Part shown: positions 143 to 47,816 of the stretch, in pieces
How positions within the stretch are numbered: position 1 is the stretch's first letter
Layout: the number at the start of each line of letters is the position of its first letter
Virus record (IMG/VR): IMGVR_UViG_3300042561_000324
Location: 1 to 50,870 of that record
Reading direction: 5' to 3' (one strand)
DNA: 50,870 bases
Origin: a virus
Taxonomy: Duplodnaviria > Caudoviricetes
Translations under genes and position numbers: made by a program
The notes under the pieces: generated by a model
Database searches by the model: none
Seen by the model: the letters and a program-made list of their open reading frames with translations, nothing else
Told to the model about the DNA's origin: nothing

Positions 143-1347
143 TCACCACGCATGATGATTTCCGTTGTGTAGTTCCTCGCGCCACGGCGGTTCTTCTTGA
201 TTGTTAACATACTCTTGGTCTTTAGGTGTTCGATATACACAACTTGGTCAGAGTGCATACCGATTGCCCGTGATTCGCGTAGTCTTCCCTCGTCGTTTAA
301 CTGGGAAGCTGTCAGCATAATCGAATTATTCTTGAGTGCAGCTACCTTTAACCGCCTTGCTATCTCGGAAATCTGCCCTTCTCGGCTGTCTGAACCATCA
401 TATGAGATGATTTGCAGGTAATCTACAACAATCACATCTGCCCGTTTTTCGCCTGTATATCGTGCGATATTGGCCTCAATTTCTGTGATATCTGCTATTC
501 CGTCCACGATTTCGATGGGTAACTGGTGTAATTTGAGGAGTGCCGCGCTGATGGCTTTCAGTTCTCCTTGGTTTACATTCTTGTAATCCTCTGGTTCGCG
601 GATTGGATAGCCTGCCAAGTTGCAAGCCATGCGGGTCAGGATGTCTTTAGCCTTCATCTCTAGGGAAAAGAACAGGACTGACTTTCCATCCAGTAGATTT
701 GCGAGTGCAGATTGGACTAGGTAGATGGATTTACCTCCGCCCGTCTCCGAAGCTACAGTCATCATCTCTCCTTTGTGCATACCACCCTTGAGCGCACGAT
801 CCACTTTTGTCAGTCCAGTAGTAAAGCATTCGTTTACCGCTTTACCTTCCATCTCATCAATGATCTCGATGATGATATCTTTGACTGGTTTTACTTTGAC
901 TGTCCGATCTTCGGCGCACTTCATTATCGTTTCCGATAACGAGCGAAGGTCAGCCTTGCCAAGCCGCAGGTCATTCTCGGTTTTCTCAATGATAGAGATG
1001 GCATCGCGGTAGCCCTTCATCTTGTGAAGATTCTTGCGGTAGTCATCGGCCATGTCTTGGCACACCTTACCGGATGCGATCTTCATCGTGCATAAAGTGT
1101 CGTGGACAGATTCTTCACCGCCGACTTCTTCTAGCTGTCCAGTTGCTTCAAGCTCTGCAATCGCGGAGAATTGACAGCAAGAGCCTGTCCGCTGGTGAAC
1201 CCCTTGGAGGGCGTTAAAGATGATTCTGTGGGCAGGTAGCGCGAAATAATCACTATCCCACGTTTGTTGGGAAAGGATATTTCGGTCTGTTGCTATCAGC
1301 GACAATGCCGCCGCTTCGCTCTTGTGTGCTATTGGGACTTTTTTCAT
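115..1347 (-). CDS. dnaB: Replicative DnaB-like helicase
   Basis: N-terminal DnaB domain (DYFALPAHRIIF), Walker A ASETGGGKS, FFSLEM, Walker B VIVVDYLQ, SQLN..LRESRAI and KNRRG arginine finger. Confidence 0.95.
   Translation of the reverse strand: MKKVPIAHKSEAAALSLIATDRNILSQQTWDSDYFALPAHRIIFNALQGVHQRTGSCCQFSAIAELEATGQLEEVGGEESVHDTLCTMKIASGKVCQDMADDYRKNLHKMKGYRDAISIIEKTENDLRLGKADLRSLSETIMKCAEDRTVKVKPVKDIIIEIIDEMEGKAVNECFTTGLTKVDRALKGGMHKGEMMTVASETGGGKSIYLVQSALANLLDGKSVLFFSLEMKAKDILTRMACNLAGYPIREPEDYKNVNQGELKAISAALLKLHQLPIEIVDGIADITEIEANIARYTGEKRADVIVVDYLQIISYDGSDSREGQISEIARRLKVAALKNNSIMLTASQLNDEGRLRESRAIGMHSDQVVYIEHLKTKSMLTIKKNRRGARNYTTEIIMRGDISKLEEVY
924..939. promoter_or_regulatory. Dispersed palindrome TTATCGTTTCCGATAA (inside dnaB)
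   Basis: Perfect TTATCG-N4-CGATAA. Confidence 0.85.
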
Positions 1348-2075
1348 TAGAACTTATTGTTGTTAAAAAACTCCGTTTGGTCTTCCTTTTCTTTGTAAGC
1401 GCGAGCTTTGTCTATCTCGCCAGCCCAGTTGTTAAGGAGCGTTTCCATTGAACGGCGAGTGTAAATGTCTTTTTCGTTTCGTCTGGAATAGAAATTTTCA
1501 AGTAACTTCCAGTCTTCTTCACAAGTATCGAGATTAGGTTTAGCTGCCTTTATCTCTTTTGGAGTCCAGCTTGTAGAATCGCGTCTTCCGAGAAGACGAT
1601 TTGCTCTTTGCTGAAAAGTTAAGAGATTAAGAGTTAATTCTCCCCTAGCATCTCCTTTAGAAACTTTACTAGTATCTATGTTCACCTGTGGGTTGAGTCT
1701 GACTTCACCTACAGGTTGAGTCTGATTGCACTTCTGGGTTGAGTCTGACTTCACCTGTGGGTGAACTCTGACTTCACTTGCAGATGAAGTCTGGTTTGGT
1801 AATACTGCAAGAATTTTCCTATTTCTTCCATCGTATGAAATCTGTTTAATCATCTTCAATGACCTTAATTTTGAGATCATGTTTGAGATACTTGATTCTG
1901 TGCTATGAAACATTCTTGCAAGGTAAGCATTACTTGCAAAACATGGTTTCTCTTCAGTTCCAAGAGAACTGATTTCTGCCCACAAGCATTTCTCCATCCA
2001 TGATAATGATTGAGATTCCCATATTTCTACAGGAACCCAAACACCGCGAAAAACTCTTTCGTTCTTCTCGCTCAT
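1347..2075 (-). CDS. Phage replication initiator (lambda O-like, N-terminal winged helix)
   Basis: N-terminal LSWMEKCLWAEI..CFASNAYLARMF..SISNMISKL wHTH pattern, central iteron repeats, directly upstream of dnaB. Confidence 0.85.
   Translation of the reverse strand: MSEKNERVFRGVWVPVEIWESQSLSWMEKCLWAEISSLGTEEKPCFASNAYLARMFHSTESSISNMISKLRSLKMIKQISYDGRNRKILAVLPNQTSSASEVRVHPQVKSDSTQKCNQTQPVGEVRLNPQVNIDTSKVSKGDARGELTLNLLTFQQRANRLLGRRDSTSWTPKEIKAAKPNLDTCEEDWKLLENFYSRRNEKDIYTRRSMETLLNNWAGEIDKARAYKEKEDQTEFFNNNKF
1681..1795. repeat. Five tandem 23-bp iterons, probable replication origin
   Basis: Units start at 1681, 1704, 1727, 1750 and 1773 (consensus TTCACCTGTGGGTTGAGTCTGAC). The period is not a multiple of 3, and an AT-rich tract lies at ~1600-1680. 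Confidence 0.85.
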
Positions 2076-2386
2076 AGTTCGATTCCCTCCCCATAAATAT
2101 CGTTAATCAAATTGATGTTGCAGAATATTTTTACTTCATCACGATTTTTTTGAACGTATATTAAATCCCATGCTGCCAAACAATCCAATGCTGAATTTAT
2201 ACTTCTTTTTGATACATTAAAAATAAATGCTAAATAATCTTTATCATTTACGCACCCTCTATCCCAATTTTCAATGTATGCTAATAATTCTCGTTGCAAT
2301 GGATTCAATCCACCAATGCGAATTATTTTGCGTTTAATCATTATCCCATTTTTTTTCCGTATTGGACAATCATCATATTTTTTCAT
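2072..2386 (-). CDS. Small winged-helix protein resembling the initiator N-terminus
   Basis: LNPLQRELLAYI..DYLAFIFNVSKRSINSALDCL. Likely start MKKYDD at 2386, since the upstream extension lies within a structured leader. Confidence 0.65.
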   Translation of the reverse strand: MKKYDDCPIRKKNGIMIKRKIIRIGGLNPLQRELLAYIENWDRGCVNDKDYLAFIFNVSKRSINSALDCLAAWDLIYVQKNRDEVKIFCNINLINDIYGEGIEL

Positions 2387-2544
2387 TTTAGAAAAAGGCG
2401 ACCCCTTGTGATGGCGACAGGAAGCGGCAACTGACGCATGAGAGTGGTTTACCACCACAAGGGATCATATAGTTTGTTTGTTAATTTAATTCCTGACTTT
2501 ACTTCGGCTCTCACCCCGAAGGCGTGATTTCTCACACGCGAAAG

Positions 2545-2573
2545 AAACTACTAGATGTTGTATTCAGTGTCAA
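2545..2573 (-). promoter_or_regulatory. Sigma70-like promoter for the replication operon
   Basis: Minus-strand TTGACA (2573-2568), 17-bp spacer, TAGTTT (2550-2545). Confidence 0.6.
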
Positions 2574-2582
2574 GCATCTTTT

Positions 2583-2598
2583 TTATCGGAACCGATAA
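2583..2598. promoter_or_regulatory. Dispersed palindrome TTATCGGAACCGATAA
   Basis: Perfect arms. Abuts the stop codon of ORF 2599-2967 and lies 9 bp upstream of a -35 box. Confidence 0.9.
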
Positions 2599-2967: not shown

Positions 2968-3028
2968 AATAGATAAGGCTATCAAAAATGCCTTGACTTG
3001 TCAATAGTTCTGGTTTAATTTTATTCAA

Positions 3029-3436
3029 ATGAAACATCCATTAGAAGAAGCCTACGATAGTTGCATGATGGCTTACGAGCAATCACGCACTGTTCGTTCT
3101 ATTGGACGGAGGACTTTCGCCCAGCAACTGCGTGAGACTCGCAGGAAACTGAACATGACTGTCAGGGAGCTGGGCGAAAGGATCGGAGTGACTGGATCGC
3201 TCATCAACCAGATTGAAGTAAACTCCAAGAGCATTCTGAAAAAAGAACAAGTAGAAAAGATTATCGAACTATGCGTGTCTTCCTTGAAATCGAAGAGGGG
3301 AAATACAAGCTCCGAGTCAGTCCATACGCCGCAGAAACCCCAAGTCCCATGCACCAGCGAGGGAAGCCCTTCCCCGATAGCTACAGTCCAGAATACGAAA
3401 GCATGGAGCTGGCCTCCATCGGACTTCAAGAACTAA
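3029..3436 (+). CDS. XRE/Cro-family HTH regulator
   Basis: LRETRRKLNMTVRELGERIGVTGSLINQIE is a typical HTH_3 signature. Divergent -35-like boxes lie at ~2993-3004. Confidence 0.8.
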   Translation: MKHPLEEAYDSCMMAYEQSRTVRSIGRRTFAQQLRETRRKLNMTVRELGERIGVTGSLINQIEVNSKSILKKEQVEKIIELCVSSLKSKRGNTSSESVHTPQKPQVPCTSEGSPSPIATVQNTKAWSWPPSDFKN

Positions 3437-3978: not shown

Positions 3979-5832
3979 TTACCAATCTCCATTATCATCT
4001 GATGAGTAGGCATCGTCATCAGAGAATGATTCAACTGGCTTTTCCTCCCTAGACCAGAATCGGTTAGTAGGAACAACTTTATCGTTTCCGATAAATACTA
4101 GTCCATACCTCCGCGCCATCTCTAGGCAGTAAAGATAGCTATCCGCCAAGTCGGGCGAGAACCCAGTTCTTCCCTTAAAGTCATCTTTAGTCTCTACAGA
4201 AATCTTCTTGGACTTAATCGTGTATCGGCGGAGGCAAAGTTCCCGCGCCAGATCGGAGCTAGTATCTACACCATAGAGAACTCGACTCTTGAATCCATGA
4301 TAGGCTGAATACCAATATTCAGATACCAACCTATCATAAACATCCTTACACGGGCGTTTATCAACTTCGGCGGCGATACGCTCGGTAGGTTTACCCATAG
4401 AAGAGATGAGTGCGATTGCGGAGCCTGTAGCGTCAAATCGTAGCCACTCACGAATAATAGCCTGCCCGACTCGTCCACCATCACCGGAAACGTCCATTCC
4501 GAAGTTGGATGGCTTTACTCCAGCCGACCTACAATAGTTAACAACTTCAGTAGCCAATTGGATTTCAAACTCGGCAGCGGCATTGGCTGACAACTGAATG
4601 ACCTTCTGACTTTCCAGATACATGACACGATTGCGAGTCCCGCGAACGTATCCTAGCTTGGCGATGGTAAGAACGCATCGGTCTCCCCCTACAGTAAACG
4701 CGGTATCGAACCCAGCCACCTTGGTGAATCCTTCAGAATCCCATAATGGTTCTTCGTTGGTATTAGCATTACGGATCAGATCGGCGGTGAGAATTGTTTG
4801 AGCGAATCCAGACTTCGGCCACCAGCCAATAGCGTTACGAACATAGTCAACAGCATTCTCGTCGCCATAACACAGCTTGAGCATATCCTTCTGCTTCTCA
4901 CGATCCATTAAGAATGGAAATGGAGATGGTTCATCAGGTGGCGCGGCGAAGTTAGGAGAGCGCATACCATTGTAAAACAAACACACTCCAGTTCCTGTCT
5001 CCCATTTATCCATTTCTGGATTAACAGAATCAAAGTTAGAACAATCTTTAGGCATAGCCCAACGAGTGTGCGGGTTGTCACCAGCGGACGGGTTTCCAAT
5101 TCCAATGAATGTCTTATCATTGTTTGATGCTAGGTTTGTTCTTGCGGTAATCGCGCCCAACTCCATTTCTGGCAATTCATCAAGAGCAAGACGAACCCTG
5201 TCATTCTTACGACCACGGGTTGTATCAATAGCCTTTTGGCCTTCATTACCGGATTGGAATGCGAGAGCTTTTATCGCATTACGATAATCTTTATCCTCAT
5301 CGTTGGATGCGCCACCCCAAACAATCATGTGGCGATAGTCGATTAGTTTACCTATTTGAACGCGAGCGCACTTCCAGAGTTTAGAGATGATACCCCAGAT
5401 ACGATCTTCAGAAGCACCGAGAGTTGTAGTAGCAACCCAAGAAGAAGTGCAGTGCGGGGCGGCACACCAATCAAGATAAATCCAAAGACCAACAGGAAAA
5501 GATTTACCCATCGAAGCCGCACCAGCTAAACAAATATCTGTATTGTTGCAAAGCTCCTCAAGAGTTCTTAACAATTGGGTATTTGTATAGCCACGATTGT
5601 AGATAGAAACTTCAGTCGGCCATTGGAGTTTTACGGCATTGATGAAATGTTCGTGTGGCGATAGTAATTTAAATTCAGAAAGACTTATGTTATGCCTAGT
5701 GCAATAACTTCTGCCATATTGCCCTCTAGTGATAGCGTAGCAAAATAACTCAACGCCAAGATCGTCGAGGTTCTCTGGAAACTGCATCCCGTATCTACGA
5801 ATTCCTTTGTTTGAAGAAAAAGCTCTTGACAT
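3979..5832 (-). CDS. terL: Terminase large subunit
   Basis: Walker A GAASMGKS, Walker B LALDE, coupling motif GNP, nuclease acidic motifs AGFDTA and SPDLADS. Confidence 0.9.
   Translation of the reverse strand: MSRAFSSNKGIRRYGMQFPENLDDLGVELFCYAITRGQYGRSYCTRHNISLSEFKLLSPHEHFINAVKLQWPTEVSIYNRGYTNTQLLRTLEELCNNTDICLAGAASMGKSFPVGLWIYLDWCAAPHCTSSWVATTTLGASEDRIWGIISKLWKCARVQIGKLIDYRHMIVWGGASNDEDKDYRNAIKALAFQSGNEGQKAIDTTRGRKNDRVRLALDELPEMELGAITARTNLASNNDKTFIGIGNPSAGDNPHTRWAMPKDCSNFDSVNPEMDKWETGTGVCLFYNGMRSPNFAAPPDEPSPFPFLMDREKQKDMLKLCYGDENAVDYVRNAIGWWPKSGFAQTILTADLIRNANTNEEPLWDSEGFTKVAGFDTAFTVGGDRCVLTIAKLGYVRGTRNRVMYLESQKVIQLSANAAAEFEIQLATEVVNYCRSAGVKPSNFGMDVSGDGGRVGQAIIREWLRFDATGSAIALISSMGKPTERIAAEVDKRPCKDVYDRLVSEYWYSAYHGFKSRVLYGVDTSSDLARELCLRRYTIKSKKISVETKDDFKGRTGFSPDLADSYLYCLEMARRYGLVFIGNDKVVPTNRFWSREEKPVESFSDDDAYSSDDNGDW
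4079..4094. promoter_or_regulatory. Dispersed palindrome TTATCGTTTCCGATAA (inside terL)
   Basis: Perfect arms; read in a different frame (FIGNDK) from the dnaB copy (LSETI). Confidence 0.85.
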
Positions 5833-5868: not shown

Positions 5869-6246
5869 ATGAAACTAAAAAACAAAAACCTAGCGCCAAT
5901 TGGGGGATGGTATTGGAAATACGAAATCAAACGCGATAAACTCACGTTTCCTGCAATTGTTCATGGAAGCACTTGGAATTCTTTAATCAAGAATATCGAA
6001 AAAGACTATCGCGCAAATAACATCGAAATTCCTGATAACATCGAAGAGATGGTAGAAGATCAAATCTGCCAACGCCAACCAAGTGATCGTTGCTGGTATA
6101 GCGATGGTCTTGGAGACAAGATTGCTCAAGCCATCCATACAGTTGCAGCGATAACTGACAAAGTTTTGAAAACTAAACTTGAACAGAAAGCTAAAATATG
6201 TCCTTCATGCAATAAACGTAGGGCCGTATTGAATAAATTATCGTAA
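5869..6246 (+). CDS. Hypothetical protein with C-terminal CxxC
   Basis: 125-aa ORF with CPSC; first gene of the structural operon. Confidence 0.75.
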   Translation: MKLKNKNLAPIGGWYWKYEIKRDKLTFPAIVHGSTWNSLIKNIEKDYRANNIEIPDNIEEMVEDQICQRQPSDRCWYSDGLGDKIAQAIHTVAAITDKVLKTKLEQKAKICPSCNKRRAVLNKLS

Positions 6247-6253
6247 ACGATAA
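6238..6253. promoter_or_regulatory. Dispersed palindrome TTATCGTAAACGATAA
   Basis: Contains the upstream gene's stop codon; 5 bp before the portal ATG. Confidence 0.9.
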
Positions 6254-10453: not shown

Positions 10454-10469
10454 TTATCGTTTACGATAA
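10454..10469. promoter_or_regulatory. Dispersed palindrome TTATCGTTTACGATAA
   Basis: Perfect arms; downstream of TTGACA (10403-10408) at the start of the capsid leader. Confidence 0.9.
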
Positions 10470-12056: not shown

Positions 12057-12066
12057 AGTTAAATAA

Positions 12067-13054: not shown

Positions 13055-13070
13055 TTATCGTAACCGATAA
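13055..13070. promoter_or_regulatory. Dispersed palindrome TTATCGTAACCGATAA
   Basis: Immediately after a stop; 6 bp before the next ATG. Confidence 0.9.
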
Positions 13071-18885: not shown

Positions 18886-19424
18886 TTCCCAACTCCAGAC
18901 CACAGCAAGCCAAGGAAAAGACACTCGCAATGGTAATCAAAGCGGGTATCGAAGACTTGGTTTGTTTGGTCGGGATTCGTGGATACTACCTCGACTCGAT
19001 GGGGGCAAAAGGAAAGAACGACAGAGGTATCTACGACGATGCGATCATTCTTCTATCACCAAGCGTTCATGCTACGTTTAACGCTAATACTGATCCTTCA
19101 GTTTTCAAGAAAGGCATTGCTGTGCTTAAAACAGGCGTGCATCGCTTTCGTAAAGGCAATCATGGTATCTCTAAACCCGGAGGTGGCTACCCAGCGTTAC
19201 GACCTGCTAACGCAAAAGAACAACTCCCTGTTACGCGAGATGGTGAAGGTGATTCGATGGGGATTGCGATAAACATCCATAAAGGAGGATATAACACTAC
19301 GAGTTCGCTCGGCTGTCAGACGATCTACCCACCGCAATGGGACGGGTTCATAAATCTCGTCTACTCGGAGATGAGTAGATACAACCAGAAGACGATACCA
19401 TATTTATTAACGGAATTATCGTAA
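18882..19424 (+). CDS. Putative endolysin with L,D-transpeptidase-like His/Cys motif
   Basis: Directly after the holin; INIHKGG..SSLGCQ resembles the YkuD H..S.GC catalytic motif. Confidence 0.55.
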   Translation: MIPNSRPQQAKEKTLAMVIKAGIEDLVCLVGIRGYYLDSMGAKGKNDRGIYDDAIILLSPSVHATFNANTDPSVFKKGIAVLKTGVHRFRKGNHGISKPGGGYPALRPANAKEQLPVTRDGEGDSMGIAINIHKGGYNTTSSLGCQTIYPPQWDGFINLVYSEMSRYNQKTIPYLLTELS

Positions 19425-19431
19425 ACGATAA
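19416..19431. promoter_or_regulatory. Dispersed palindrome TTATCGTAAACGATAA
   Basis: Contains a stop codon; 7 bp before the next ATG. Confidence 0.9.
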
Positions 19432-30454: not shown

Positions 30455-33400
30455 ATCTGTCTCTTGAAAAACTCAAAGAGGCGCGAGATGCTGGAATCCC
30501 AGATGATGTTATTTGGGAGGCAGCGGCTAGTGCTGAACCGAAGTTCAATGAACTGAAAAATAATAACATACCTCTTGATGTAGCATTTGAAGCATTTCAA
30601 GGATTTAAACCAGTAGGCACTTCTTTTACTGACAAGCTACAGACAGCTACAGAAGAACTGGAGATGACTATTGCGGATATTCCGCTTGCTCTGGGCGAAG
30701 CATTTTCTGGATTAACAAAAACTGCTCCAGCATCTTTCTATGCAGCCAAAGAAGGACTCGCAAGACCAGACCAATACTCAAAAGAAGCCCTTGCTGCATT
30801 TGATACTCAACGCGAATACTTCAAGCAATTAGAACAACAAGCTAAAACAAGAGAAGCTGAAGGTAAGTCAACTGCTGTTGGTGAAGCGATTCGCGGAGCG
30901 GGGCAAAGCCTTGGGTTTACTGTTGCTGGCATGGCTCCCGCTATTGCTGGTGGAGCGATAACAGGCGCGGCGGCGAGCGCACTATTTCCCCCTGCTGCAT
31001 CTGCAACTATTCCTATTGGTGCTATTGCTGGAGGTATCGGATCAATGGTTGCGTCTGCACCAGTTTCATATCGAATGGCAGGCGGACAATTCCTGTATGA
31101 TGCTTTTAAATCTTTAGAAGAAAGCAAAGGAAGTCCACTTACTGAAGAAGAGAAAACAAAAGCATACAATGAACTTCTTCCTATCGCGCAGAATACAGCA
31201 TTGTGGGAAGCCGGGCCAGAGGCTATCGGAAATGCAGTTCAACTTGGCGCATTGAAATATGCCTTTGGATTTGGAAAGAAAGCGGCAACAAATGTAGCAG
31301 GCCAAGCAATTCAAAAAGCAAATGATACTTTGTTGAAAAAAGTAGGGGCAGTTGCTGGAGGACAAGTAGTTGAACTTGCTGGTGAAACAATTACTCAAAC
31401 ACAGCAAGGCGCAGACCAAGCAAAGATGGAACAATATGTTAAGACTGGTTCTACCGCTGGTGCGCCTGACGAATACCAAGGTCTGGCTGGAGCGGTAAAA
31501 GCATTCAAGGAAGTTGCTCCTACTACATTGGCATTGGGTGCTATTACCGCAGGTGCGGGTGGGGCAGTAAAGGTTGTTGGCATGGGTGGAAAACAAGTTG
31601 GCAAAGTATTATTTTCCAAACCTAAAACTCCAGAGCAAATCGCTGAAGATCAAATAAACGATGCCGCTAATAGGGTAGCAAACGATCTTTCAATTTCACC
31701 AGACGATACGCAAGCCAACAATCTTAACCAACAGATTAAGGCATTGTCTGAAGTTCAAGAGATACGCAAGCAAACATTGGCCGCGATTGAACCCACAAGC
31801 AGAGAAGCACAAACGCTTAAACTTGATATTGCCGAAGGCGAGTCAATGCTTGGTGAGCTTAACCAAAATCTCACAAAGCTGACCGGATTATCGGAACCGA
31901 TAACAGAAGCCGAGCGTCAGCAAGCCGAGTTAGCCAAGGCGATAGTAGAAGAACCAGCCCCAACTGTTAAGGAATCCTTGACAGTTCAGCCTGCACAAGC
32001 TGCACCCGCGCCAGTAGAACAAGTAGTCACGCCACCAGTAGAAGATGTTAAAAAACCAAACATAGAAATCAAAGAAGTTGAAAATGGATTTCAAGTTCTT
32101 GTTGATGGAACTCCGCAATCTGACACGATTTGGGCTACACGCGAAGCCGCCTCACAAGTAGCAAAATCAGAGTATGAATACGAGATGCGGAAAGCAAAAA
32201 AGAAAGCACCCCGCGCAATATCGGAAATGATAATATCTACCTCGCCTGATGGAGATGTTATTTATGAACCTAAAATAAGTGGAGAAATTGGAGATATTAT
32301 ATCAATTAAAGGTGCAATATCTGCATCCAAAGAAGATGGAGAATTTCCTGCAAGAGAAACTCCAAAAGATTATTACAAGCAGGGTGATGTATATCGTCAT
32401 ATTGACGATCCAAGATTCAAAGTTTCTGATACCAATGAAGAAGGCATTGTAAAACTTGCCGAACAAGCAACTGAAAAACTTACAAATAAAGATAATTCAG
32501 CAGCAATTAACGGAATTGAACAACACATGGGAGCATTCAGCAATCCTCAAGCTGCTACAAAAGCTCTCAATCAATATTCTGAAGTTCTTAAACCAATTCA
32601 AGAAGCGCACCGCTCGCTTTTGAGACAGAAATACGGAGATACTGTTACTGTATATAGAGCAGTTGATCCAAACTTTACTCCAAGTCCAAATAGAAATGTT
32701 TCCAGTTGGACTCTTTCAAAAGAAAATGTTGATAAGTTATATTTTGGATTAAAGGATCGCGTGACTCTTACCAAGACAGTCAAGGTAGATGACATTCAAT
32801 TCATGCATAACTGGAGAGAGGCAGAAGTTCTACTGCGAGATGACGCTAAAGATATCGCAGAACCCGCGCCAGTTGAGCCAATCACTCCCGCGCCAGTCAC
32901 CGAGCAAGCTGCGCCAGCAGAAGCTCCCGCGCCAGAGGTTGCGAAACCAACTGGCGGTGTTGATTATTACAAGCAACTTGGTGAACAAGATGCGTTAGAC
33001 ACTAATCGCAAAAAGAAGCGTTCAGTTCCGCAGAACTTTAAACTGGCTTATGAAAATGGATGGTCAGCGGCAAAAAGAAAAGCCAGAGAAGAAGCTCCCA
33101 CCCCCGCAGTATCGGAAACGATAACGGAGCCAAAACTCGGAGAAAAAGGCGGTGTTCTAATCCCTACCAAAGAAGACGTTCGATACAACCCACTTGGATA
33201 CGACATCGCTGATGTTGTTGAAGATATTAAGCAGGGCAAGACAAGCACTCCGCTTAAAGCAGTAAACCAAGTAATCAAAGAATCTACTGATCTTCGCAAG
33301 CGTGTTGCTGCTGAATCTACTCGTCGCCAACAACCGAGAAAGATGGGCAAGGCCGCGATATTGGAGCGAATCGCAAGGGAACGCAGTGCTGGCAACATCA

Positions 33401-36916: not shown

Positions 36917-36932
36917 TTATCGGAACCGATAA
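36917..36932. promoter_or_regulatory. Dispersed palindrome TTATCGGAACCGATAA
   Basis: Perfect arms; between the terminator and the next promoter. Confidence 0.9.
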
Positions 36933-39002: not shown

Positions 39003-39977
39003 ATGAAAAAGAAAGAACTAGAATTGTTTAGCCCAACTCAAGAGGGAGTCCTTGTCCCTCTGTCCACCTACCTCCGTCACATGGGGGAGTTCGTAAAAGA
39101 CGAATGGCCGGGGATCACGATCACCGAGACCCACATTAAGAAGGCGTGGAGCAAGCTCCAGAAGAACGAATATCTGGATGACGATGCGCCAGATGAAATG
39201 CTGGAGATGTATGAGCGTATGTCCGCCGACTGGGACATGGCTAAAGAGATGGAAGAAGAGCGTCAGAATGTAGATGAATACAAACCAGAGCCAATCACGG
39301 CCACACTGGAGCCAAAGAACGAATCCCTCGCCCTTGTGGAGAGCGTTAAAAACGGATTGGAATTGTCCTCCTTCACGCAGAAGTTCGACATCGGGCAGGG
39401 CATGACGCAATGCGTTCCCAAAGGTAAGGTAGAGATGAAAGACTGGGTGGCGGCATTCGCCTTCGGTCTGACTCTGGAAAGCGGAGCGCAATGGATCATC
39501 GGAGATTCGGTGGTAGCACTAGAGAATGGTGGGCATGAAGATGTAGTCAACCAACTCTGCTCCAACTTCAAGAAGTCCTACTCGACTGTCTCTGGATACG
39601 CTAGGGCTTGCCGAGCCTTCCCTACTGATAAGCGTGATCCAATGCTTCCGTTCACAGTCTACCGAGAGATTGGCAACGCTAACTTCGGGGATGATAAGAC
39701 CAACAAGAAGAAGCAAGACGAGCTTCTTGAGGCGGCGAAGACAGAGAAGCTATCCTCAACAGAGGTTCGCAACCGAGTTCGCCATGAGCAAGGTAAAGAC
39801 GATAAGCCATCCGGTCATCGTTACCTGCTCCTCAATGTCGGGAACTTCAGTAACTCCGAAGTCCTCCGCAATATGCCAGAGGAAGTCCAAGAACACCAAC
39901 TGCTGATCGACCTTGGAGACAAGTCATGGTTCGATCCAGCCGAAGGTGAGTGGCTGAAATTCTTGAAGGAACAATGA
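39003..39977 (+). CDS. LmbU-like DNA-binding protein
   Basis: AQWIIGD..KSYSTVSGYARACRAFP..R.PMLPFTVYREI..LLEAA..LSSTEVR follows the LmbU-family pattern as I recall it. Confidence 0.55.
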   Translation: MKKKELELFSPTQEGVLVPLSTYLRHMGEFVKDEWPGITITETHIKKAWSKLQKNEYLDDDAPDEMLEMYERMSADWDMAKEMEEERQNVDEYKPEPITATLEPKNESLALVESVKNGLELSSFTQKFDIGQGMTQCVPKGKVEMKDWVAAFAFGLTLESGAQWIIGDSVVALENGGHEDVVNQLCSNFKKSYSTVSGYARACRAFPTDKRDPMLPFTVYREIGNANFGDDKTNKKKQDELLEAAKTEKLSSTEVRNRVRHEQGKDDKPSGHRYLLLNVGNFSNSEVLRNMPEEVQEHQLLIDLGDKSWFDPAEGEWLKFLKEQ

Positions 39978-40228: not shown

Positions 40229-40230
40229 TC

Positions 40231-40510: not shown

Positions 40511-40526
40511 GTATCGTAACCGATAA
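40511..40526. promoter_or_regulatory. Dispersed palindrome GTATCGTAACCGATAA
   Basis: 1 bp after a stop; 7 bp before TTGACA (40534). Confidence 0.85.
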
Positions 40527-41082: not shown

Positions 41083-42711
41083 TTAAATCAGATTCTCTTC
41101 TTCATCTTTTGGAGCTAGTGAGATAGTCCCGTCAATTTCTCCATCGTTCAGCGTGTCCATACGCTTTAGCTTCTCGTCTAGCTTTTCGCAGATGGATTCC
41201 TCGATAGGAACACCCGCCGCGTAGATGAGATACTGGATCGACTTGGACTTACCGCCTGCCCTGTGGACTCGACCCAATACTTGTTTGAGATCGAACACGC
41301 TAGGCGAAGGCATGATTAGCGCAACCCGTGAGTGATTGCCATTGAGATCGTGGAGGTTCAAACCTTCCCGCGATGCCTGTATAATCCCAATAATGACTCT
41401 CGACTTATCATTCTGGAACGAATCAATCTTGCCTCTACGCTCAATCTCGTTCTGTCCTCCGTAGATGGCGCAATCGGTCTTGAGTTCTTCCATGAGCCAT
41501 TCACGGGTCTCGGTGTAGTTCACCGCGATGAAGACAGAGTTACCTTCTTCGATTAGATCACGCGCCATTGCCGCCACCGCTGGAGCCTTGAGCATTTCGA
41601 TTCTCTGTCTTGCTCTAGTCTGTTCTGCTAGGACATTTGCCGAGAAATTTTCCTGCATCCGCAACTCTTCGATTCGGTTGCAAAGGTCTTCATACTCATT
41701 GGCAATCTTCTTTGCGTTATCCATGTCGAAGGCTTTCGCCTTGATGAGCGTTTCGGGGAACGCATCGCCAAGGTCAGAGTGCCTCAACCGATTACCCTTT
41801 TCGGGGTAGATTCGGCTATGGAGTTTCTTCAATACTGAATTGCCTCCTGTGAACTGCATTCCGAAGCGGGTCTTCCTGCACCCGTTCTGTGATAGGAATC
41901 GGAAGTAGTCCTTCCCACCTTGGTGAAGGCCGAGGAACTGCCCGATTGCCCACAACTTTGTAGGATCGTCGGCAATGGTAGCAGAGAGAGCAATCGCAGG
42001 GATGTTCTGGATAACCGAATCACGGACTAGGAAAGCGTTCTGGGTAGCTTCACCTTTGCCTCTGTGAACTTCATCGAACACTAGCAGAACATCTTCGGGC
42101 AGCATGAAGCGGAAGGACTTTTTATTATCATCCGTCCAGCGTCCCATCTGACTCTTGCCAGTTTTGGCCCATTCCCATCCGCAGATTTCAAACACCTCGA
42201 CGCCCATCATTTTCGCGGCGCGATGCCAGTCTGTTGTGATAGGTTTGGGGCAGACTACCGCAACCCGCTTGCCAAGCTCACGGGCGATGCCGAGGGCGCA
42301 GAAGGTTTTTCCTACACCTGTGGAATGTCCGAGCAAGACTCGATTGTATTTATTCATCGAAGCAACACCCATCTGGACGGAGGTTTGCTGGTATTCAAAC
42401 AAACCTTCGGGGTGGAGAAGCGGAATCAGATCAAGCTCGGCGACCGCTTCGACTTGGTTATCGGAAACGATTATCTGCTTGAACTTGAGGTCTTCCGTTG
42501 ACCACCAAGACAAACCCCACTCTTCGCGGAACTTGCCTAGGGTGATCCCGGCTTTAGACATCTGCTCTTTGAAAAGTTCTTTGTCCTCGCGGTAGACCTT
42601 CCAAAACTGGTCGGTGATCGGAGCCTTCTTTAGAAGCCGAACTCCGCGTTTAGTGTTTAGCTGAATGGGATGCGACCATTCAACTGTTGCCATCAAATCG
42701 TGGATGTTCAT
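41083..42711 (-). CDS. SF2 helicase (SNF2/DEAH-like)
   Basis: STGVGKT, FDEVH, LSAT, EGLNL, QVLGRVHRAG; contains palindrome variant TTATCGGAAACGATTA at 42458-42473. Confidence 0.9.
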   Translation of the reverse strand: MNIHDLMATVEWSHPIQLNTKRGVRLLKKAPITDQFWKVYREDKELFKEQMSKAGITLGKFREEWGLSWWSTEDLKFKQIIVSDNQVEAVAELDLIPLLHPEGLFEYQQTSVQMGVASMNKYNRVLLGHSTGVGKTFCALGIARELGKRVAVVCPKPITTDWHRAAKMMGVEVFEICGWEWAKTGKSQMGRWTDDNKKSFRFMLPEDVLLVFDEVHRGKGEATQNAFLVRDSVIQNIPAIALSATIADDPTKLWAIGQFLGLHQGGKDYFRFLSQNGCRKTRFGMQFTGGNSVLKKLHSRIYPEKGNRLRHSDLGDAFPETLIKAKAFDMDNAKKIANEYEDLCNRIEELRMQENFSANVLAEQTRARQRIEMLKAPAVAAMARDLIEEGNSVFIAVNYTETREWLMEELKTDCAIYGGQNEIERRGKIDSFQNDKSRVIIGIIQASREGLNLHDLNGNHSRVALIMPSPSVFDLKQVLGRVHRAGGKSKSIQYLIYAAGVPIEESICEKLDEKLKRMDTLNDGEIDGTISLAPKDEEENLI

Positions 42712-44352: not shown

Positions 44353-44937
44353 ATGAACAAAACACCCGAATTGAATAGCGAAACGCTAGGCCGTGGAAGG
44401 CGCAAGAAATGGGACATGGATAAGATTGAACAGTTATTCATGGGCGGCGCGGAGATGTCGGACATTCTGAAATTGCCAGAGTTTAGTAAGATGAGCAGGT
44501 TCTACCTCAAGAACTGCATGGTTAAAGGAAAGTGGATCGACAAACGAAAGAAGCTCCGCGAATCCGTTGCAAATATCGTCGCCCCGAAGATGGAGGACTT
44601 GATGGCCGTGGAAACATCTGCGCATTATCAGTTTATGCTCAAGCAGATCGCGGAGGAACGTGCGCAAATTGACAGCAGATACAAATCGGGAAACATTAAA
44701 GACCAGTCCGCAAGGTTGGATGTTCTGGCGCAATATGAGAAAATGGCGACCCGTGCGTTGGGGTTGGATGAGAATAATATGCACGATAGAAAAGGTTTAA
44801 GCGTAAACGCAATGATTTCGCTTCATGTGGAAGGGCCGCGAAAAGCCGTGGAAGGAACAGTTGTATCCGCTGAATATGTCAAAGTGGAAAATCATGGCGA
44901 AAAAGTGGAGGAATCGGAAACGGAGAAATCAGAGTAG
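44353..44937 (+). CDS. Putative terminase small subunit
   Basis: N-terminal WDMDKIEQLFMGG..KGKWIDKR HTH-like segment, helical middle and short beta C-terminal segment. Confidence 0.5.
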   Translation: MNKTPELNSETLGRGRRKKWDMDKIEQLFMGGAEMSDILKLPEFSKMSRFYLKNCMVKGKWIDKRKKLRESVANIVAPKMEDLMAVETSAHYQFMLKQIAEERAQIDSRYKSGNIKDQSARLDVLAQYEKMATRALGLDENNMHDRKGLSVNAMISLHVEGPRKAVEGTVVSAEYVKVENHGEKVEESETEKSE

Positions 44938-44948: not shown

Positions 44949-44964
44949 TTATCGGAAACGATGA
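44949..44964. promoter_or_regulatory. Dispersed palindrome variant TTATCGGAAACGATGA
   Basis: One mismatch; 11 bp after a stop. Confidence 0.7.
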
Positions 44965-46149: not shown

Positions 46150-46317
46150 CTAGCGTGCATTTTCCATCTTGGTGATCTTTGACTTAAGCGCACGAATTTT
46201 CGCCTGTTGTTCGACAATGGTGACTGTGGGAGCTTCACTAAATACCAGAGTGTGCAAATCATCGCGCATTCCGGCCAGCTTGGTTTTTAAGGCATGGATT
46301 TGATTTAGGTTTTTCAT
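46150..46317 (-). CDS. Small coiled-coil protein
   Basis: MKNLNQ start after an A-rich leader. Confidence 0.55.
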   Translation of the reverse strand: MKNLNQIHALKTKLAGMRDDLHTLVFSEAPTVTIVEQQAKIRALKSKITKMENAR

Positions 46318-47229
46318 GTGTGTTTTTCTAGTTGTTCGACACATTCACATATTCAAATATGATGATGGGTCAGGTTTTTTTCGTGTATCCGCACACCGGA
46401 ATTTCTAGCGTGCGAAATTATTTTTTCTTCAAAGAGCGATTGTGAATTTACCCGCAGAGCCTCATTCAGAGCCGTTCCGCGAACATCACGGGACAAACAA
46501 TATCATTTTCCACTCGATTGTCCATATTTATTTTTCATTTATTTTCTAGCCATGCCTAGCAAGAATCGTGCCATGCTGTAAACACGCTATTGTTGACACA
46601 CACGCAAGCAAGACCCATGCCAAGCCATTTTGGGCGATGCAATGCCACTTTGCGCCAGTCTCAACAAGTGTCCGAAAACGCGGGAAAACACCGCAATTCC
46701 GGTTTTTTATTGAGACTAGGAAAAGCGTTCTATATATTCAAATAATCACCCAAAGCAATAGTTGCCAGCAATACCAGTTCCGCCAATCTCATCAGCAAAG
46801 CGAAACACGATTGCCAGCCAGCCAGCGCAATTGCGAATCCATCCAGGCACGATCCTGTCACACGATACCAGCAACGCCACACGATCCGGCACGCTCACCG
46901 ATCCGACATGATACAACGCCACACGCTCACGGATCACAGACATGGCAAGACATAGCACAGCACAGCGCACAGGCATGGCACGCATGGCGCAAAGGAATCT
47001 CTTTTATATAGGGAGGCCCGATGGCATCACCGGGCTGCCCCGCCATGCCCGACTCGCGCAGCTCCAAATGCGGAAAACCCCTCTTCCTAGAAAAACTGGT
47101 TATTTCCCTCTTTCTCCCTCTTTCGCCCTATGCAGCTACGCTGACCCATGCTTGTCTTCTGTTAATAAAATGTTGTAACCATCCTTTAGATTTTCCTGTG
47201 ATGGTTTTCTGTAATCTGGTTTCCTTTAA

Positions 47230-47245
47230 TTATCGGTTACGATAA
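47230..47245. promoter_or_regulatory. Dispersed palindrome TTATCGGTTACGATAA
   Basis: 7 bp past the stop of 47253-47801; identical to the 47801 copy. Confidence 0.9.
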
Positions 47246-47252
47246 CCATCCT

Positions 47253-47801
47253 TTATTTCTCACAGGAGTAGATGGTATCTTGGAGTTTGAGTTTAGGGAT
47301 GATGGGGGTGGTGTAGCTATTATCTTGGAATGCTACTTTGTTTGTTGGTTGGATGGTTAGTCTTCCGTTGTCGAGTTCTATGAAGATGAATTCTTTGTCT
47401 TGGTCTGGGCTATCTGACCAGCCGTCGTTTAAGTGGGCGGTTGAGAATAGGTATTTACCTTTGTAGATGTTTTGGTTGATCTTTGCTGTTACTGGTAGCC
47501 CGGTTAGGATTTGGTTTTGTAGTATGGTAAAGTTGTATGAGTAGCAGTCCCAGAGTTGGGATTCTTCTATTCTCCATCCTTCTAGGGCGTTTTCTTTGAA
47601 TCTAACTGCGTTTGGTGGGATATTTCTGTAGAGTGCGCCGCCGTCTTTTAGGATGACGTTTATTCCCCATGCTCTGCTTGGTATACTAGTTATACCTACC
47701 CACATGGCTTCTACTGGCCCGATTGGCTTTTCGTGGGTATATTCGCTATCTATGTAGATGTAGCGGTGGGTTGGCAGTGCGCCGATTTTTGTGTAGTTCA
47801 T
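47253..47801 (-). CDS. Conserved-looking phage hypothetical protein
   Basis: 182 aa (GALYRNIPP, QLWDCYSY, LDNGRLTIQPTN); flanked by identical palindromes. Confidence 0.8.
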   Translation of the reverse strand: MNYTKIGALPTHRYIYIDSEYTHEKPIGPVEAMWVGITSIPSRAWGINVILKDGGALYRNIPPNAVRFKENALEGWRIEESQLWDCYSYNFTILQNQILTGLPVTAKINQNIYKGKYLFSTAHLNDGWSDSPDQDKEFIFIELDNGRLTIQPTNKVAFQDNSYTTPIIPKLKLQDTIYSCEK

Positions 47802-47816
47802 TATCGGTTACGATAA
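47801..47816. promoter_or_regulatory. Dispersed palindrome TTATCGGTTACGATAA
   Basis: Overlaps the ATG of 47253-47801; 1 bp past the stop of 47818-47901. Confidence 0.9.

Follow-up and report, generated by a model that had tools for sequence, protein, structure and literature searches.

A conserved array of palindromic sites and a candidate binding protein in an uncultured lake phage

Palindromic sites in the phage genome

The window, the whole 50,870-nt stretch of DNA that was analyzed (IMG/VR record IMGVR_UViG_3300042561_000324), is the complete virus record of an uncultured lake phage for which no cultured relative was found. An earlier note on this DNA had described about 20 copies of a 16-bp palindrome, TTATCG-KWWM-CGATAA, as an operator system spread over the phage. 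The 13 copies with perfect arms were each found where the note had placed them, and the seven copies with one or two mismatches (20702, 24226, 32218, 33109, 40511, 42458 and 44949) are all present. The 20 sites are as follows.

924..939: exact arms, within a DnaB-like gene, in the frame LSETI
2583..2598: exact, directly after the stop of 2599-2985 (minus strand), 9 nt upstream of a minus-strand TTGACA (2568-2573) with TAGTTT (2545-2550)
4079..4094: exact, in the 3' part of the large terminase gene, in the frame IGNDK
6238..6253: exact; the gene 5869-6246 has its stop codon within the spacer, and 6259-8790 starts with an ATG 5 nt downstream
10454..10469: exact; the site falls in the 327-nt gap that precedes the putative major capsid gene, and upstream of it lie a terminator-like hairpin and, at a distance of 45 nt, TTGACA (10403-10408)
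13055..13070: exact; follows the stop of 12788-13054 and precedes the ATG of 13077-15167 by 6 nt
19416..19431: exact; the spacer contains the stop of 18882-19424, and 7 nt separate the site from the start codon (ATG) of the exonuclease gene (19439) downstream
20702..20717: one mismatch (outermost base), intragenic
23789..23804: exact arms, spacer TAAG, intragenic
24226..24241: two mismatches (both outermost bases), intragenic
26767..26782: exact, after the stop of 26542-26766, with the ATG of 26788 5 nt downstream
31888..31903: exact, within a 2118-aa ORF
32218..32233: motif-like, two mismatches, within the 2118-aa ORF; the weakest member, with no relative aligned there
33109..33124: one mismatch (outermost base), within the 2118-aa ORF
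36917..36932: exact, between a terminator-like hairpin and a promoter-like TTGACA (36963-36968) with TAGATT (36985-36990) that heads the operon containing 39003
40511..40526: one mismatch, 1 nt past the stop of 40231-40509 at the end of the 39003 operon, with TTGACA (40534-40539) 7 nt downstream
42458..42473: one mismatch, within an SNF2-type helicase gene
44949..44964: one mismatch, 11 nt past the stop of 44353-44937 (plus strand)
47230..47245: exact, just downstream of the stop of 47253-47801 (minus strand)
47801..47816: exact; on the minus strand it ends in the A of the start codon (ATG) of 47253-47801 (minus strand)

Form and statistics of the motif

The motif is far above chance against a shuffled background, as the note had supposed. 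The exact form TTATCG-N4-CGATAA occurs 13 times in the window and 0 times in 100 dinucleotide-preserving shuffles. With up to two mismatches allowed, there are 22 matches compared to 2.14 expected, and the largest shuffle had 6. The two matches beyond the 20 sites, at 22002 and 43428, have odd spacers and look like chance. No other palindrome in the window is over-represented.

The consensus core is TATCG-KWWM-CGATA. Among 42 one-mismatch copies from six genomes, the changed base is the outermost in 33 and the second in 8. Because this variation falls almost wholly at the outermost two bases, the strict core is TATCG-N4-CGATA. The spacer fits K-W-W-M in 19 of the 20 sites, with 23789 as the sole exception, and the symmetry extends to its degenerate positions (K at 7, M at 10). 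Preferences for the spacer and outer bases vary by clade (KAAM, KTAM, YCAA, C...G); in the sister phage G006, both outer bases have changed jointly, to C...G. The proposal that the two halves vary independently holds in part, since the spacer centre is never AT (0 of 402 instances) and spacer orientation leans to the sense strand.

Conservation in the clade

Related loci hold 323 exact copies (80 loci, 899 kb in total), and all five near-complete relatives have 10-14 exact copies each. Eight genomes are motif-rich (G000-G007, 10-29 sites each), among them the complete sister phages G006 and G007 with 29 and 26 sites. The sisters G008-G010 are motif-poor, with 0, 0 and 1 site. One metagenome-assembled genome (MAG) holds a relative; its 20 copies are all confined to the 51.8-kb phage contig, with the other ~750 kb free of them, a distribution that supports a phage-borne motif. 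The bin is probably not the host.

The clade keeps the motif in position as well as in number. Sites 924, 4079, 6238, 10454, 13055, 26767, 36917 and 42458 are conserved islands in alignments of 70-89% identity, so sites are kept where flanks have diverged; the note had suggested checking relatives for this. The 16-mer at 924 is the same in four of four aligned relatives with differing flanks. The copy at 24226 is also the same in four of four, three of which have an overall identity of 93-94% and the fourth 81%, and G004 holds a copy at the place aligned with 20702. Spacer orientation is flipped in the orthologous sites of 2583 (G003 and G005), 26767, and 42458 (G001 and G002).

The terminase copy at 4079 was compared across 77 distinct genes from 99 loci by ranking 1836 sixteen-nt windows by entropy. 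It takes ranks 1-3 for low entropy, at 0.062 bits per column compared to a gene mean of 0.50 and 1.02 at third codon positions, and no stretch of this length in the gene varies less. All 12 arm positions are invariant, with zero entropy. Intragenic copies use two reading frames, one LSETI-type and one I(G/V)xD-type. Both results bear out the claim that selection acts on the nucleic acid.

Placement relative to genes and promoters

By our own gene list for the window, 11 of the 20 sites touch gene ends or intergenic gaps, which make up 10.2% of positions (binomial p about 9e-7). Across eight genomes, 20 TTGACA boxes are no more than 45 nt from a site compared to 4.2 expected, and these neighbours form three conserved promoter-like sets. 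We confirmed the reported TTGACA boxes that adjoin 2583 (on the minus strand), 36917 and 40511, as well as the one that precedes 10454. About 80% of sites have no promoter-like box nearby. About a fifth lie 2-14 nt ahead of a start codon, and placement 5-8 nt ahead recurs in three clades.

Candidate binding proteins

Four further features of the window bear on what might bind the sites.

39003..39977 (plus strand): candidate binder, 324 aa; central helical domain (about 140-265) ParB/Noc/KorB-like; predicted symmetric homodimer
3029..3436 (plus strand): XRE-family HTH protein, rival binder; recognition helix invariant in the clade
2993..3004 (no strand): a different palindrome, TTGACTTGTCAA, between the divergent genes 2599-2985 (minus strand) and 3029 (plus strand)
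44353..44937 (plus strand): 194-aa protein, an N-terminal three-helix bundle followed by long helices; presence and absence track the motif

The 39003 protein is present in all eight motif-rich genomes and absent from G008-G010 by tblastn and profile search. Every one of the 51 viral loci that encode a relative carries the motif, with 2-20 core motifs each. This co-occurrence, like the motif itself, its conservation and its placement, is a direct observation. The same phyletic pattern is seen for an SSB-like protein, DnaB, an HNH nuclease and the 44353 protein, and the pattern probably reflects one or two gain or loss events. The operon that holds 39003 (37027-40509) is bracketed by sites 36917 and 40511, an autoregulatory layout.

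The note had called this protein LmbU-like. That label is unsupported because Pfam finds 0 families, also at E<=10 on five diverse members; the gene is nevertheless the best candidate on other grounds. A PDB profile search gave 0 matches at E<=10. Pfam HTH_ParB has no match anywhere in the window at E<=10 and was found in 14 of 14 control genomes. In a Foldseek search with the AF2 model (pLDDT 78), Spo0J/Noc/ParB made up the whole top ten and the majority of the top twenty (E 0.06-0.7; prob 0.8-1.0 for the most part). VIA-align placed the model on Spo0J-parS 4umk (Z 8.8, rmsd 4.5, 113 aligned), ParB 6t1f (Z 8.4), the Noc DBD-NBS 6y93 (Z 8.2, 113/116) and the KorB DBD 1r71 (Z 5.1). In a fold search independent of Foldseek, the best ParB match (6s6h, Z 7.1) ties with the Rubisco factor Raf1 (Z 7.3); no chain reached Z 8, and this range is common for helical domains according to the tool. 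The resemblance to ParB thus has middling scores. An Atlas feature search independently gave the 'ParB HTH' cluster at 0.93.

Homodimer prediction with residues 106-324 scored 0.77 compared to 0.00 for the best control, a mark reached by 20 of 30 proteins solved as same-chain pairs and by 1 of 23 with single-chain structures. Contact agreement among the runs was at least 71%, partner pLDDT was at least 73, and the predicted interface lies in the most conserved helices (145-173). The homodimer model supports binding without showing it.

Other candidates from the note fared less well. The 2072 winged-helix product and the protein encoded next to it resemble replication initiators and lack conservation in the clade, the 42708 product has no match in any relative, and the 20447 product is matched in G004 only. 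The 44353 protein, which we infer to be small-terminase-like, is a minor rival; a fold search with it was uninformative.

Alternative explanations

The XRE-family protein at 3029-3436, a lead binder in the note, would be a classical dimeric repressor with many operators. It matches Pfam HTH_3/HTH_19 and the PHROG 'transcriptional regulator/repressor', its gene lies in a divergent-promoter region as is typical for genetic switches, and it occurs in 103 clade loci, where the recognition helix GVTGSLINQIE is essentially invariant even at 46-59% overall identity, in parallel with the invariant motif arms. However, no homologue was detected in G006 and G007 (tblastn E<=1e-3; profile E<=1, with G000, G001 and G004 found as positive controls). 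Its promoter region has no motif copy; instead, 6 of 6 genomes conserve another palindrome there, ATTGAC-YT-GTCAAT, which could be either overlapping -35-like boxes or the protein's own operator. Because it is absent from the 29- and 26-site sisters and has another palindrome at its own promoter, we regard this binder as distinctly improbable. Its patchy presence among motif-rich phages would also fit binding by a host transcription factor, with phages of one host group keeping the sites and thereby tying their programme to host physiology. Identical arms occur in phage lineages that share only 42-49% identity in their terminases and have a G+C content of 44 to 54.5%, and the motif-less lineages G008-G010 (41-44% G+C) could infect other hosts. 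The clade-specific spacer and outer-base preferences, however, fit a co-evolving phage protein better than a single host factor, the motif co-occurs perfectly with 39003, a phage gene whose product is a plausible DNA binder, and the only bin with a relative, although probably not the host's, holds no copy outside the phage contig. We know of no regulator with a TTATCG-N4-CGATAA box, and a literature search by motif sequence gave unrelated primer and CRISPR papers only. We consider a host factor unlikely.

Another possible explanation, which we also doubt, is that the transcribed motif forms a hairpin (5-6 bp, 4-nt loop) that punctuates polycistronic mRNAs, through processing just 5' of the hairpin, protection of 5' or 3' ends, or translation control of the gene 5-8 nt downstream. 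The recurrent placement ahead of start codons fits this, as does the orientation of asymmetric spacers, 63 of 68 of which in six genomes read K-AA-M along the sense strand compared to a 63% background, the sites not being independent (window alone, 14 of 16, p 0.03); the sense strand is strongly A-rich, which could account for this bias. In metatranscriptomes of two studies, contigs begin at 10450 and 10453, 1-4 nt ahead of the site at 10454, a weak hint; RNA depth rises 5-150-fold there, and one whole contig spans exactly 10450-13053, ending 2 nt before site 13055. However, RNA contig ends cannot show true RNA ends, a contig from a third run starts at 10421, and two runs read through 13055. 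In G006, three copies tip long hairpins (-45 to -50 kcal/mol) about 20 nt past stop codons, and the joint outer-base change from U-A to C-G preserves pairing, whereas bare hairpins of the window's type are weak (-3.1 to -4.6 kcal/mol). The inner stem shows neither G-U nor compensatory variation: none of the 42 one-mismatch copies differs at inner wobble-compatible positions, and in 41 the mismatch is uncompensated and in the two outer pairs (positions 1-2). Loops vary among sites and flip between orthologous ones (G007 is split 16 to 7, G006 is mixed), the symmetric constraint at positions 7 and 10 is needless for a loop, and Rfam has no match to the motif. Little RNA is expected at 36917 because that site sits between a terminator-like hairpin and a promoter. 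If the sites instead act as DNA, they could serve DNA transactions rather than gene expression, as recombination or module-exchange points, nicking sites of the HNH nuclease, or sites to which the 44353 or 39003 protein binds for packaging or genome organisation. ParB-fold proteins organise DNA in other systems, which we count for this reading, along with the shared phyletic pattern of the HNH nuclease, DnaB, SSB-like and 44353 proteins. Comparison of the window with five relatives gave 163 homology breakpoints, of which 20 are no more than 15 nt from a site compared to 2.8 expected from a uniform null. Gene junctions generally attract such breakpoints, however, and there is no clear motif-specific effect: 24 endpoints fall in 11 motif gaps and 87 in 48 motif-free gaps (2.2 and 1.8 per gap), with 10 of 11 and 31 of 48 gaps hit. 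Neither a ParA partner nor a CTPase domain was seen, and the junction enrichment and promoter proximity would be unexpected for purely structural sites. A role in DNA transactions is therefore very unlikely.

A proposed array of operators

The best reading, in agreement with the note, is a dispersed operator array; it accommodates the junction enrichment, the three conserved promoters adjoining sites, the selection on nucleotides and the phage-borne motif. We tentatively favor double-stranded DNA operators for a phage-encoded symmetric dimer, most likely the 39003 product. The dyad symmetry of the motif speaks for this reading, as seen in the symmetric K and M positions, the spacer flips at orthologous sites, the joint outer-base change of G006, and the one-mismatch copies, 41 of 42 of which vary at positions 1-2. 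Action of the motif as DNA, the identity of the binder and the effect of binding are what we infer here. Each subunit would read one half-site, (T/C)TATCG(K)(W), with half-site centres 10 bp apart. The protein would be made from the SSB/exonuclease operon, flanked by two sites, and would occupy 13-29 sites per genome. Some of these adjoin promoters, 7-30 bp upstream of three -35-like boxes and downstream of the capsid-operon promoter. Many sit in tiny gaps between co-directional genes, 5-8 nt ahead of the next start codon, and further ones within genes. Bound protein may hinder initiation or block elongating RNA polymerase, such that modules would be switched or silenced together. If this is correct, one phage-encoded dimer controls gene expression over the whole genome.

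Such an array of dispersed sites can be likened to the stoperators of phage L5 and to KorB operators. The central domain of the 39003 protein is predicted to resemble the HTH DNA-binding domain of ParB, Noc and KorB, but without the CTPase domain of those proteins.

A recurrent palindrome and its anatomy

The 16-bp palindrome TTATCG-N4-CGATAA was counted in the 50,870-bp window and in dinucleotide-preserving shuffles of the same sequence. The window holds 13 exact copies, against none in 100 shuffles. When up to two mismatches were allowed, 22 sites were observed against 2.14 expected, with 6 in the highest single shuffle. All 13 exact copies reported in the earlier note were recovered at their positions, and the seven degenerate copies it listed are all among the 22 sites. 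The two extra matches, at 22002 and 43428, look like chance hits. The 20 listed copies are named here by their start coordinates. No over-represented palindrome other than this motif was found.

Mismatches are unevenly distributed over the arms. Among 42 one-mismatch copies from six related genomes, the outermost base was altered in 33, the second base in 8 and position 5 in 1. Since single mismatches fall mostly on the outermost and second bases, the strict core is TATCG-N4-CGATA. The central four bases had been described as a KWWM spacer, and 19 of the 20 listed copies follow that pattern while one departs from it. A census of 402 non-redundant motif instances is given in the table below. 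Of these, 393 have AA/TT or TA at the spacer centre, and an AT centre occurs in 0/402. At spacer positions 7 (K) and 10 (M) the constraint is itself dyad-symmetric, and the half-site centres lie 10 bp apart. This geometry fits a symmetric dimer on B-DNA.

Table. Spacers in 402 non-redundant motif instances
Spacer: count
GAAA/TTTC: 127/402
TAAA/TTTA: 71/402
TAAC/GTTA: 62/402
GTAA/TTAC: 61/402
TTAA: 51/402
GAAC/GTTC: 21/402
Other: 9/402

Spacer preference differs between lineages: it is K-AA-M in the window's group, K-TA-M in the group of the motif-rich genome G004, and YCAA/TTGR in the motif-rich sister phage G007. In the other motif-rich sister, G006, the spacer is looser and both outer bases of the copies are now C...G, an arm-base change confined to this one lineage. 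That the two half-sites changed in parallel is consistent with a dimer of drifted specificity, and the change would equally preserve an RNA pair.

Genome content

The window is a complete or nearly complete virus genome (CheckV 96%, linear). Its recognisable genes include a dCMP deaminase and a pectate-lyase-like tail spike, in addition to the following.

115-1347, minus strand: DnaB-type helicase
1347-2458, minus strand: two replication-initiator-like genes
3029-3436: XRE HTH protein
3450-3764: HNH nuclease
3979-5832, minus strand: large terminase
Starts at 19439 and 37243: two exonucleases
30451-36807: 2118-aa ORF with three motif copies inside
41083-42711, minus strand: SNF2-type helicase

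No tRNA was found in the window, and none of the scanned ORFs was recognised as an integrase. The 2118-aa ORF is without a Pfam or PDB sequence match; it is almost entirely replaced in relatives, its first fifth alone being kept, in the motif-rich genome G001. Long ORFs occupy both strands across the capsid-like gene, at 10644-12113(-) and 10647-12056(+). The plus-strand ORF is 96-98% conserved in near relatives, and the region is well covered by RNA contigs, which are strand-blind; the opposite ORF is most likely its shadow. Between 46263 and 47252, about 990 nt are without a convincing ORF and are unconserved in five relatives. Short CA/CG repeats (cacgat, ccagc) are frequent in this stretch, and motif copy 47230 stands at its end. 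It may represent an origin, a decayed gene or a non-coding RNA.

Most window genes have A-rich leaders without a Shine-Dalgarno sequence, and three conserved promoter-like elements share the pattern TTGACA-N16/17-TAGnnT. Leaders of this kind and the promoter layout TTG...TAnnTT(T)G are typical of Bacteroidota. The style of leaders and promoters may point towards Bacteroidota, as a lead and not a result. A near-identical A-rich leader (aaactaaactaaacaaaa...) is present at 10617-10646 and 15428-15457, ahead of the capsid-like gene 10647 and gene 15458, and may act in translation or expression as a signal shared by late genes with high expression, in a system that does not use Shine-Dalgarno sequences.

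Conservation in relatives

Relatives were sought among 50,697 deposited phage genomes, by megablast of 25 kb and by tblastn with the terminase and capsid-like protein sequences as queries, and none was found. A terminase search returned 125 related viral contigs, the best 80 of which (899 kb) contain 323 exact motif copies. Five near-complete relatives, three of them with direct terminal repeats, are 70-89% identical to the window across about half its length, and all five carry 10-14 exact copies each. Homologues of one clade protein number 682 in the protein survey, and the lineage is common in lake metagenomes.

Positional conservation was evident at sites 924, 4079, 6238, 10454, 13055, 26767, 36917 and 42458, which are identical islands between diverged flanks. 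At three orthologous sites the spacer orientation is reversed between genomes. The intragenic copies do lie in two different reading frames, as the earlier note had pointed out, and constraint on such copies is visible in the terminase gene. There, across 77 distinct sequences from 99 loci, the motif copy has rank 1-3 among 1836 stretches of 16 nt ordered from the least variable, and 12/12 arm positions are invariant while third codon positions average 1.02 bits of entropy. The near-invariance of the terminase copy and the use of two reading frames by intragenic copies indicate that selection on the motif acts at the nucleic-acid level. The array is real, strongly selected and clade-wide.

Placement at gene junctions and promoters

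Eleven of the 20 sites touch a gene end or gap, compared with 10.2% of positions (p about 9e-7, using our own gene list). Four of the sites lie by promoter-like boxes, and nine are inside genes. Genes 6259, 13077, 19439, 26788 and 47801(-) begin 0-7 nt past a site, and a site-to-start distance of 5-11 nt is seen again in two sister lineages.

Three sites previously described as flanking promoters were found 7-30 nt upstream of conserved -35-like boxes.

Site 2583, minus strand: box heads the replication operon
Site 36917: box heads the SSB/exonuclease operon; the site lies between a terminator-like hairpin and the promoter
Site 40511: at the end of the SSB/exonuclease operon

Site 10454 is, as had been noted, downstream of a promoter-like box, which precedes the capsid operon. 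Over eight genomes, 20 occurrences of TTGACA fall no more than 45 nt from a site, where 4.2 would be expected, and about 80% of the sites have no TTGACA nearby. The motif was also considered as a sigma-70 promoter or a terminator and set aside; in a generic scan of 1-20 kb neither was in excess. Because RNA contigs show the motif to be transcribed at 10454, it is not the promoter core there.

Candidate binders

The XRE protein encoded at 3029-3436(+) was the lead candidate of the earlier note, and its recognition helix is essentially invariant in 103 clade loci. Sister phages were collected as terminase relatives at 40-50% identity through a representative search, which gave 80 loci. The core motif is absent from 67 of these, single in nine and present two or more times in four, two of which have 11 and 9 copies. 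The full records to which these last two loci belong, the sister genomes G006 (50,049 bp) and G007 (53,486 bp), are complete, with terminal repeats, and carry 29 and 26 core motifs; the complete sisters G008-G010 carry 0, 0 and 1. No XRE homologue was detected in G006 or G007 by tblastn or by profile at E<=1, and the same profile was positive in the motif-rich genomes G000, G001 and G004. In addition, the promoter region of the XRE gene has another palindrome, ATTGAC-YT-GTCAAT, in 6/6 genomes and no copy of the motif. The lack of the protein in two motif-rich phages and the different palindrome at its own promoter both count against the XRE protein, and we disfavour it as the binder. The wHTH product of 2072 had been put forward too, and it is not kept across the clade; the replication-initiator-like products of 2072 and 1347 were both set aside as unconserved.

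Further features of the XRE locus were observed. The palindrome at this promoter, TTGACTTGTCAA, lies at 2993-3004 between the divergent genes 2599-2985(-) and 3029(+) and is kept in 6/6 genomes. It may represent a pair of overlapping -35-like boxes or else a second operator. The mRNA of the HTH gene 3029 would have almost no leader. The C-terminal third of the protein (window 3275-3436), which comes after the HTH domain, is a variable S/T/P/Q-rich linker followed, in many clade members, by a conserved W(S/N)WPPSDF(K/R) peptide, which looks like a partner-docking motif.

All window proteins were then tabulated by presence or absence in motif-rich and motif-poor genomes, and five follow the motif: DnaB, the HNH nuclease, and the products of 38153, 44353 and 39003. 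The last of these, a 324-aa protein encoded at 39003-39977(+), is our candidate. Its profile is silent in G008-G010 at E<=1, and 51 of 51 viral loci encoding a relative of it (down to 21% identity) carry 2-20 core motifs, a phyletic pattern that rests on very few independent events. Genomes with 39003 have the 16-bp palindrome in 13-29 copies, and the cognate sites of ParB/Noc/KorB proteins are likewise palindromes, of 13-16 bp, that recur on one replicon.

The fold of the 39003 protein was compared by several methods. In a language-model atlas it adjoins a "ParB HTH" cluster (0.93). With its AlphaFold model (pLDDT 78), the ten top-ranked Foldseek matches and most of the top twenty were Spo0J, Noc or ParB (E 0.06-0.7). 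By VIA-align, residues ~140-265 matched Spo0J-parS (4umk, Z 8.8), ParB-parS (6t1f, Z 8.4) and Noc-NBS (6y93, Z 8.2) over 109-113 residues, which is 113/116 for Noc-NBS; values were lower for the KorB DNA-binding domain (Z 5.1, and 5.1-5.3 with the wide search included) and SopB (Z 5.0). In a wide search independent of Foldseek, the best ParB (Z 7.1, under the level that the tool calls safe for helical domains) tied with Raf1 (Z 7.3). Residues 106-324 were predicted to form a homodimer with a mark of 0.77, compared with 0.00 for the best control; this mark was reached by 20/30 proteins solved as homomeric pairs and by 1/23 single chains. The dimer runs had at least 71% contact agreement and pLDDT of at least 73, and the predicted interface is on the most conserved helices.

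Sequence searches did not place 39003 in a family. Pfam gave no family even at E<=10, a PDB profile search gave 0 hits, and the protein survey returned near relatives only, all called hypothetical. The HTH_ParB profile (PF17762) was silent in the window at E<=10 and detected 14/14 controls. For a ParB/Srx CTPase domain, there was no Pfam ParBc match in 39003 and, by eye, no GxxRxxA box in the alignment; model residues 1-94 had no consistent structural match. A ParA-type partition ATPase was absent from the Pfam hits of the ORFs scanned, a set that took in part of the small ORFs, and the DnaB-like helicase alone gave a Walker-type ATPase hit among them. The 39003 protein would work like a KorB/Noc-type site-specific binder, to which we liken it without filing it in that family.

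Two more of the proteins that track the motif were inspected. The 38153-38950 product, whose gene is always beside 39003, was blank in Pfam and PHROGs and has an acidic C-terminal tip, ...EADEIPY (DDIPW, DDFPL and TEPF in relatives). The acidic C-terminal tail of bacterial SSB is partner-binding, and by this likeness the 38153 protein is presumably SSB-like. The 44353 product (194 aa, 44353-44937(+)) gave a model with pLDDT 63 and nothing below E 2.7 in Foldseek; its HTH-plus-long-helix layout suggests a small-terminase-like protein.

DNA operator, RNA element or other role

It is rather likely that the motif is a protein-binding DNA site of some kind. The more specific reading, in which the sites are operators for a phage-encoded dimer, probably 39003 and not the XRE protein, that acts on transcription at promoters and gene junctions, is one that we favour tentatively, at a little less than an even chance. 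Under it, the dimer would occupy the palindromes and thereby control transcription at both kinds of place. A host factor is a less likely binder. One genome bin includes a relative: a terminase profile search of the genome collection had a single match, the 51.8-kb contig L210 (contig C3 of G011), in an 800-kb bin that bears the title Candidatus Woesearchaeota archaeon. The bin has 20 motif copies in total, every one of them on the phage contig. The contig is probably a mis-binned phage because the DnaB, lambda-O-like and XRE genes have a bacterial character; a DPANN host is the less probable alternative. The motif was also considered as a recombination hot spot and rejected: 20 of 163 homology breakpoints between relatives lie near sites, against 2.8 under a uniform null, and breakpoints are hardly commoner at motif junctions than at other gene junctions.

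A role as an RNA element is unlikely in our estimate, and much of the evidence can be taken in two ways. The distance from site to start codon is fixed, and the spacer centre has a sense-strand bias, as an RNA element might require. In six genomes, AA/TT-centred sites have AA on the sense strand in 63/68 cases, compared with 63% for the same tetramers in coding sequence, with two qualifications: the sites lack independence, and orientation can be read only from the central two bases. Counting the window by itself gives 14/16 (p 0.03), or 14/18 (p 0.14) when the weakest copies are included. The G006 (L366) copies 6401, 7264 and 7819, two of which are near-duplicates, cap long near-perfect hairpins of -45 to -50 kcal/mol about 20 nt past stop codons. 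Bare motif hairpins, however, are weak (-3 to -4.6 kcal/mol), their loops vary and flip, and the inner stem positions are without wobble or compensatory variation. Rfam gave 0 matches in the window. The motif is followed by A-rich sequence and no T runs, unlike an intrinsic terminator, and none of the terminator-like hairpins of the window contains it.

Transcript data are similarly two-sided. In four lake or freshwater RNA runs, read as Logan contigs (5-7% of words) in which uncovered stretches carry no meaning, RNA depth rises 5-150-fold at about 10450-10476. Metatranscriptome contigs from two studies start at 10450 and 10453, beside the site at 10454, and one RNA contig runs precisely from 10450 to 13053, just short of the next site, 13055. 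Yet contigs are unable to define RNA ends, in a third run the contig already begins at 10421, and in two runs the RNA continues across 13055. Assemblies can also break at such places when strains vary beside a conserved motif, and the same pattern would be produced by a DNA operator that occupies +1 to +16 of the capsid transcript. It is conceivable, if improbable, that these freshwater DTR phages, a large, abundant and wholly uncultured clade, use the palindrome as genome punctuation. It would then be read by a stripped-down, CTPase-less ParB-fold dimer and double as a genome-wide DNA roadblock or operator and as an RNA 5'-terminal hairpin that marks where module transcripts start and end.

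Significance and comparison with known systems

If this dual DNA/RNA reading is true, it would be a gene-junction "punctuation" system without a described phage counterpart. To our knowledge, few cultured systems have dispersed operator arrays, namely cluster A mycobacteriophages, SP-beta, P1 and IncP plasmids. The array logic now appears in a lineage with no cultured relative among 50,697 phage records; here the site is palindromic and the candidate binder differs in fold. The 16-bp motif can serve as a flag for members of the group. The candidate protein-DNA pair offers a testable route into the regulation of such uncultured phages and a possible compact, orthogonal repressor-operator pair for synthetic biology. 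The sister-phage comparison also illustrates how presence and absence can overturn an "obvious" HTH candidate. A literature search by motif sequence returned unrelated primer and CRISPR papers alone, and a search on "ParB-like" phage regulators returned nothing specific. No paper on this phage group or motif was found by these searches.

In the account of phage L5 and cluster A (PMC9283540), more than 20 stoperators for the repressor gp71 are spread over a genome of about 50 kb, in promoters and short intergenic gaps, and are proposed to stop both initiation and elongation. They are described there as 13-mers without symmetry, each bound by a repressor monomer that has two DNA-binding domains, and their orientation strictly tracks transcription, reversal abolishing repression (PMC9283540). 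Compared with that description, the window is similar in having about 20 sites, half at junctions and four by promoter-like boxes. It differs in that the site is a 16-bp palindrome, that a symmetric dimer with another fold is the predicted binder, and that nine sites are intragenic. Orientation, readable here from two central bases, shows as a bias and flips between orthologous sites. The L5 binder is the immunity repressor of a temperate phage; the window ORFs that were scanned revealed no integrase, and relatives of the window have direct terminal repeats.

The repeated element SPBRE of the Bacillus prophage SP-beta was predicted in silico in intergenic regions decades before its binder was found, and was then identified by ChAP-seq and EMSA as the site of the master repressor MrpR (PMC10516654). 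The same text describes a 15-bp motif at about ten promoter regions and a tyrosine-recombinase fold for MrpR (PMC10516654). SPBRE and MrpR are thus a precedent for an element foreseen long before its binder; unlike the window motif, SPBRE as portrayed there does not form a gene-junction or intragenic array. SP-beta is temperate, with a genome of 134 kb. The C1 operators of P1 and the conserved inverted repeats of phiC31 are also many repressor sites scattered genome-wide, several of them intergenic. Both phages are temperate, their repressors are known and belong to other families, and the P1 sites are asymmetric.

Similar sites are also found outside these phages. The IncP plasmid RK2 has 12 OB sites, the operators of KorB. 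This ParB-family global repressor is a ParB-fold HTH dimer with many palindromic operators, both promoter-proximal and distant, and controls its own operon (PMC11790492). KorB also has an N-terminal CTPase domain, a sliding clamp, a KorA lock and a role in partition with IncC/ParA, parts that were not found in the window, and its operator differs from the window motif in sequence and length. Noc-NBS and ParB-parS of bacterial chromosomes resemble the window motif in their dispersed multi-copy palindromes of 14-16 bp and their dimeric HTH reader, and the 39003 model has its best structural matches among these proteins. They depend on CTP, however, and act by spreading or as clamps in segregation and division-site control, not as gene-junction regulators; one study reportedly compares the specificity of ParB and Noc. 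Set against these systems as their sources describe them, the window follows the logic of L5 stoperators, while its type of site and the fold of its candidate binder recall KorB-OB, Noc-NBS and ParB-parS, minus the CTP switch.
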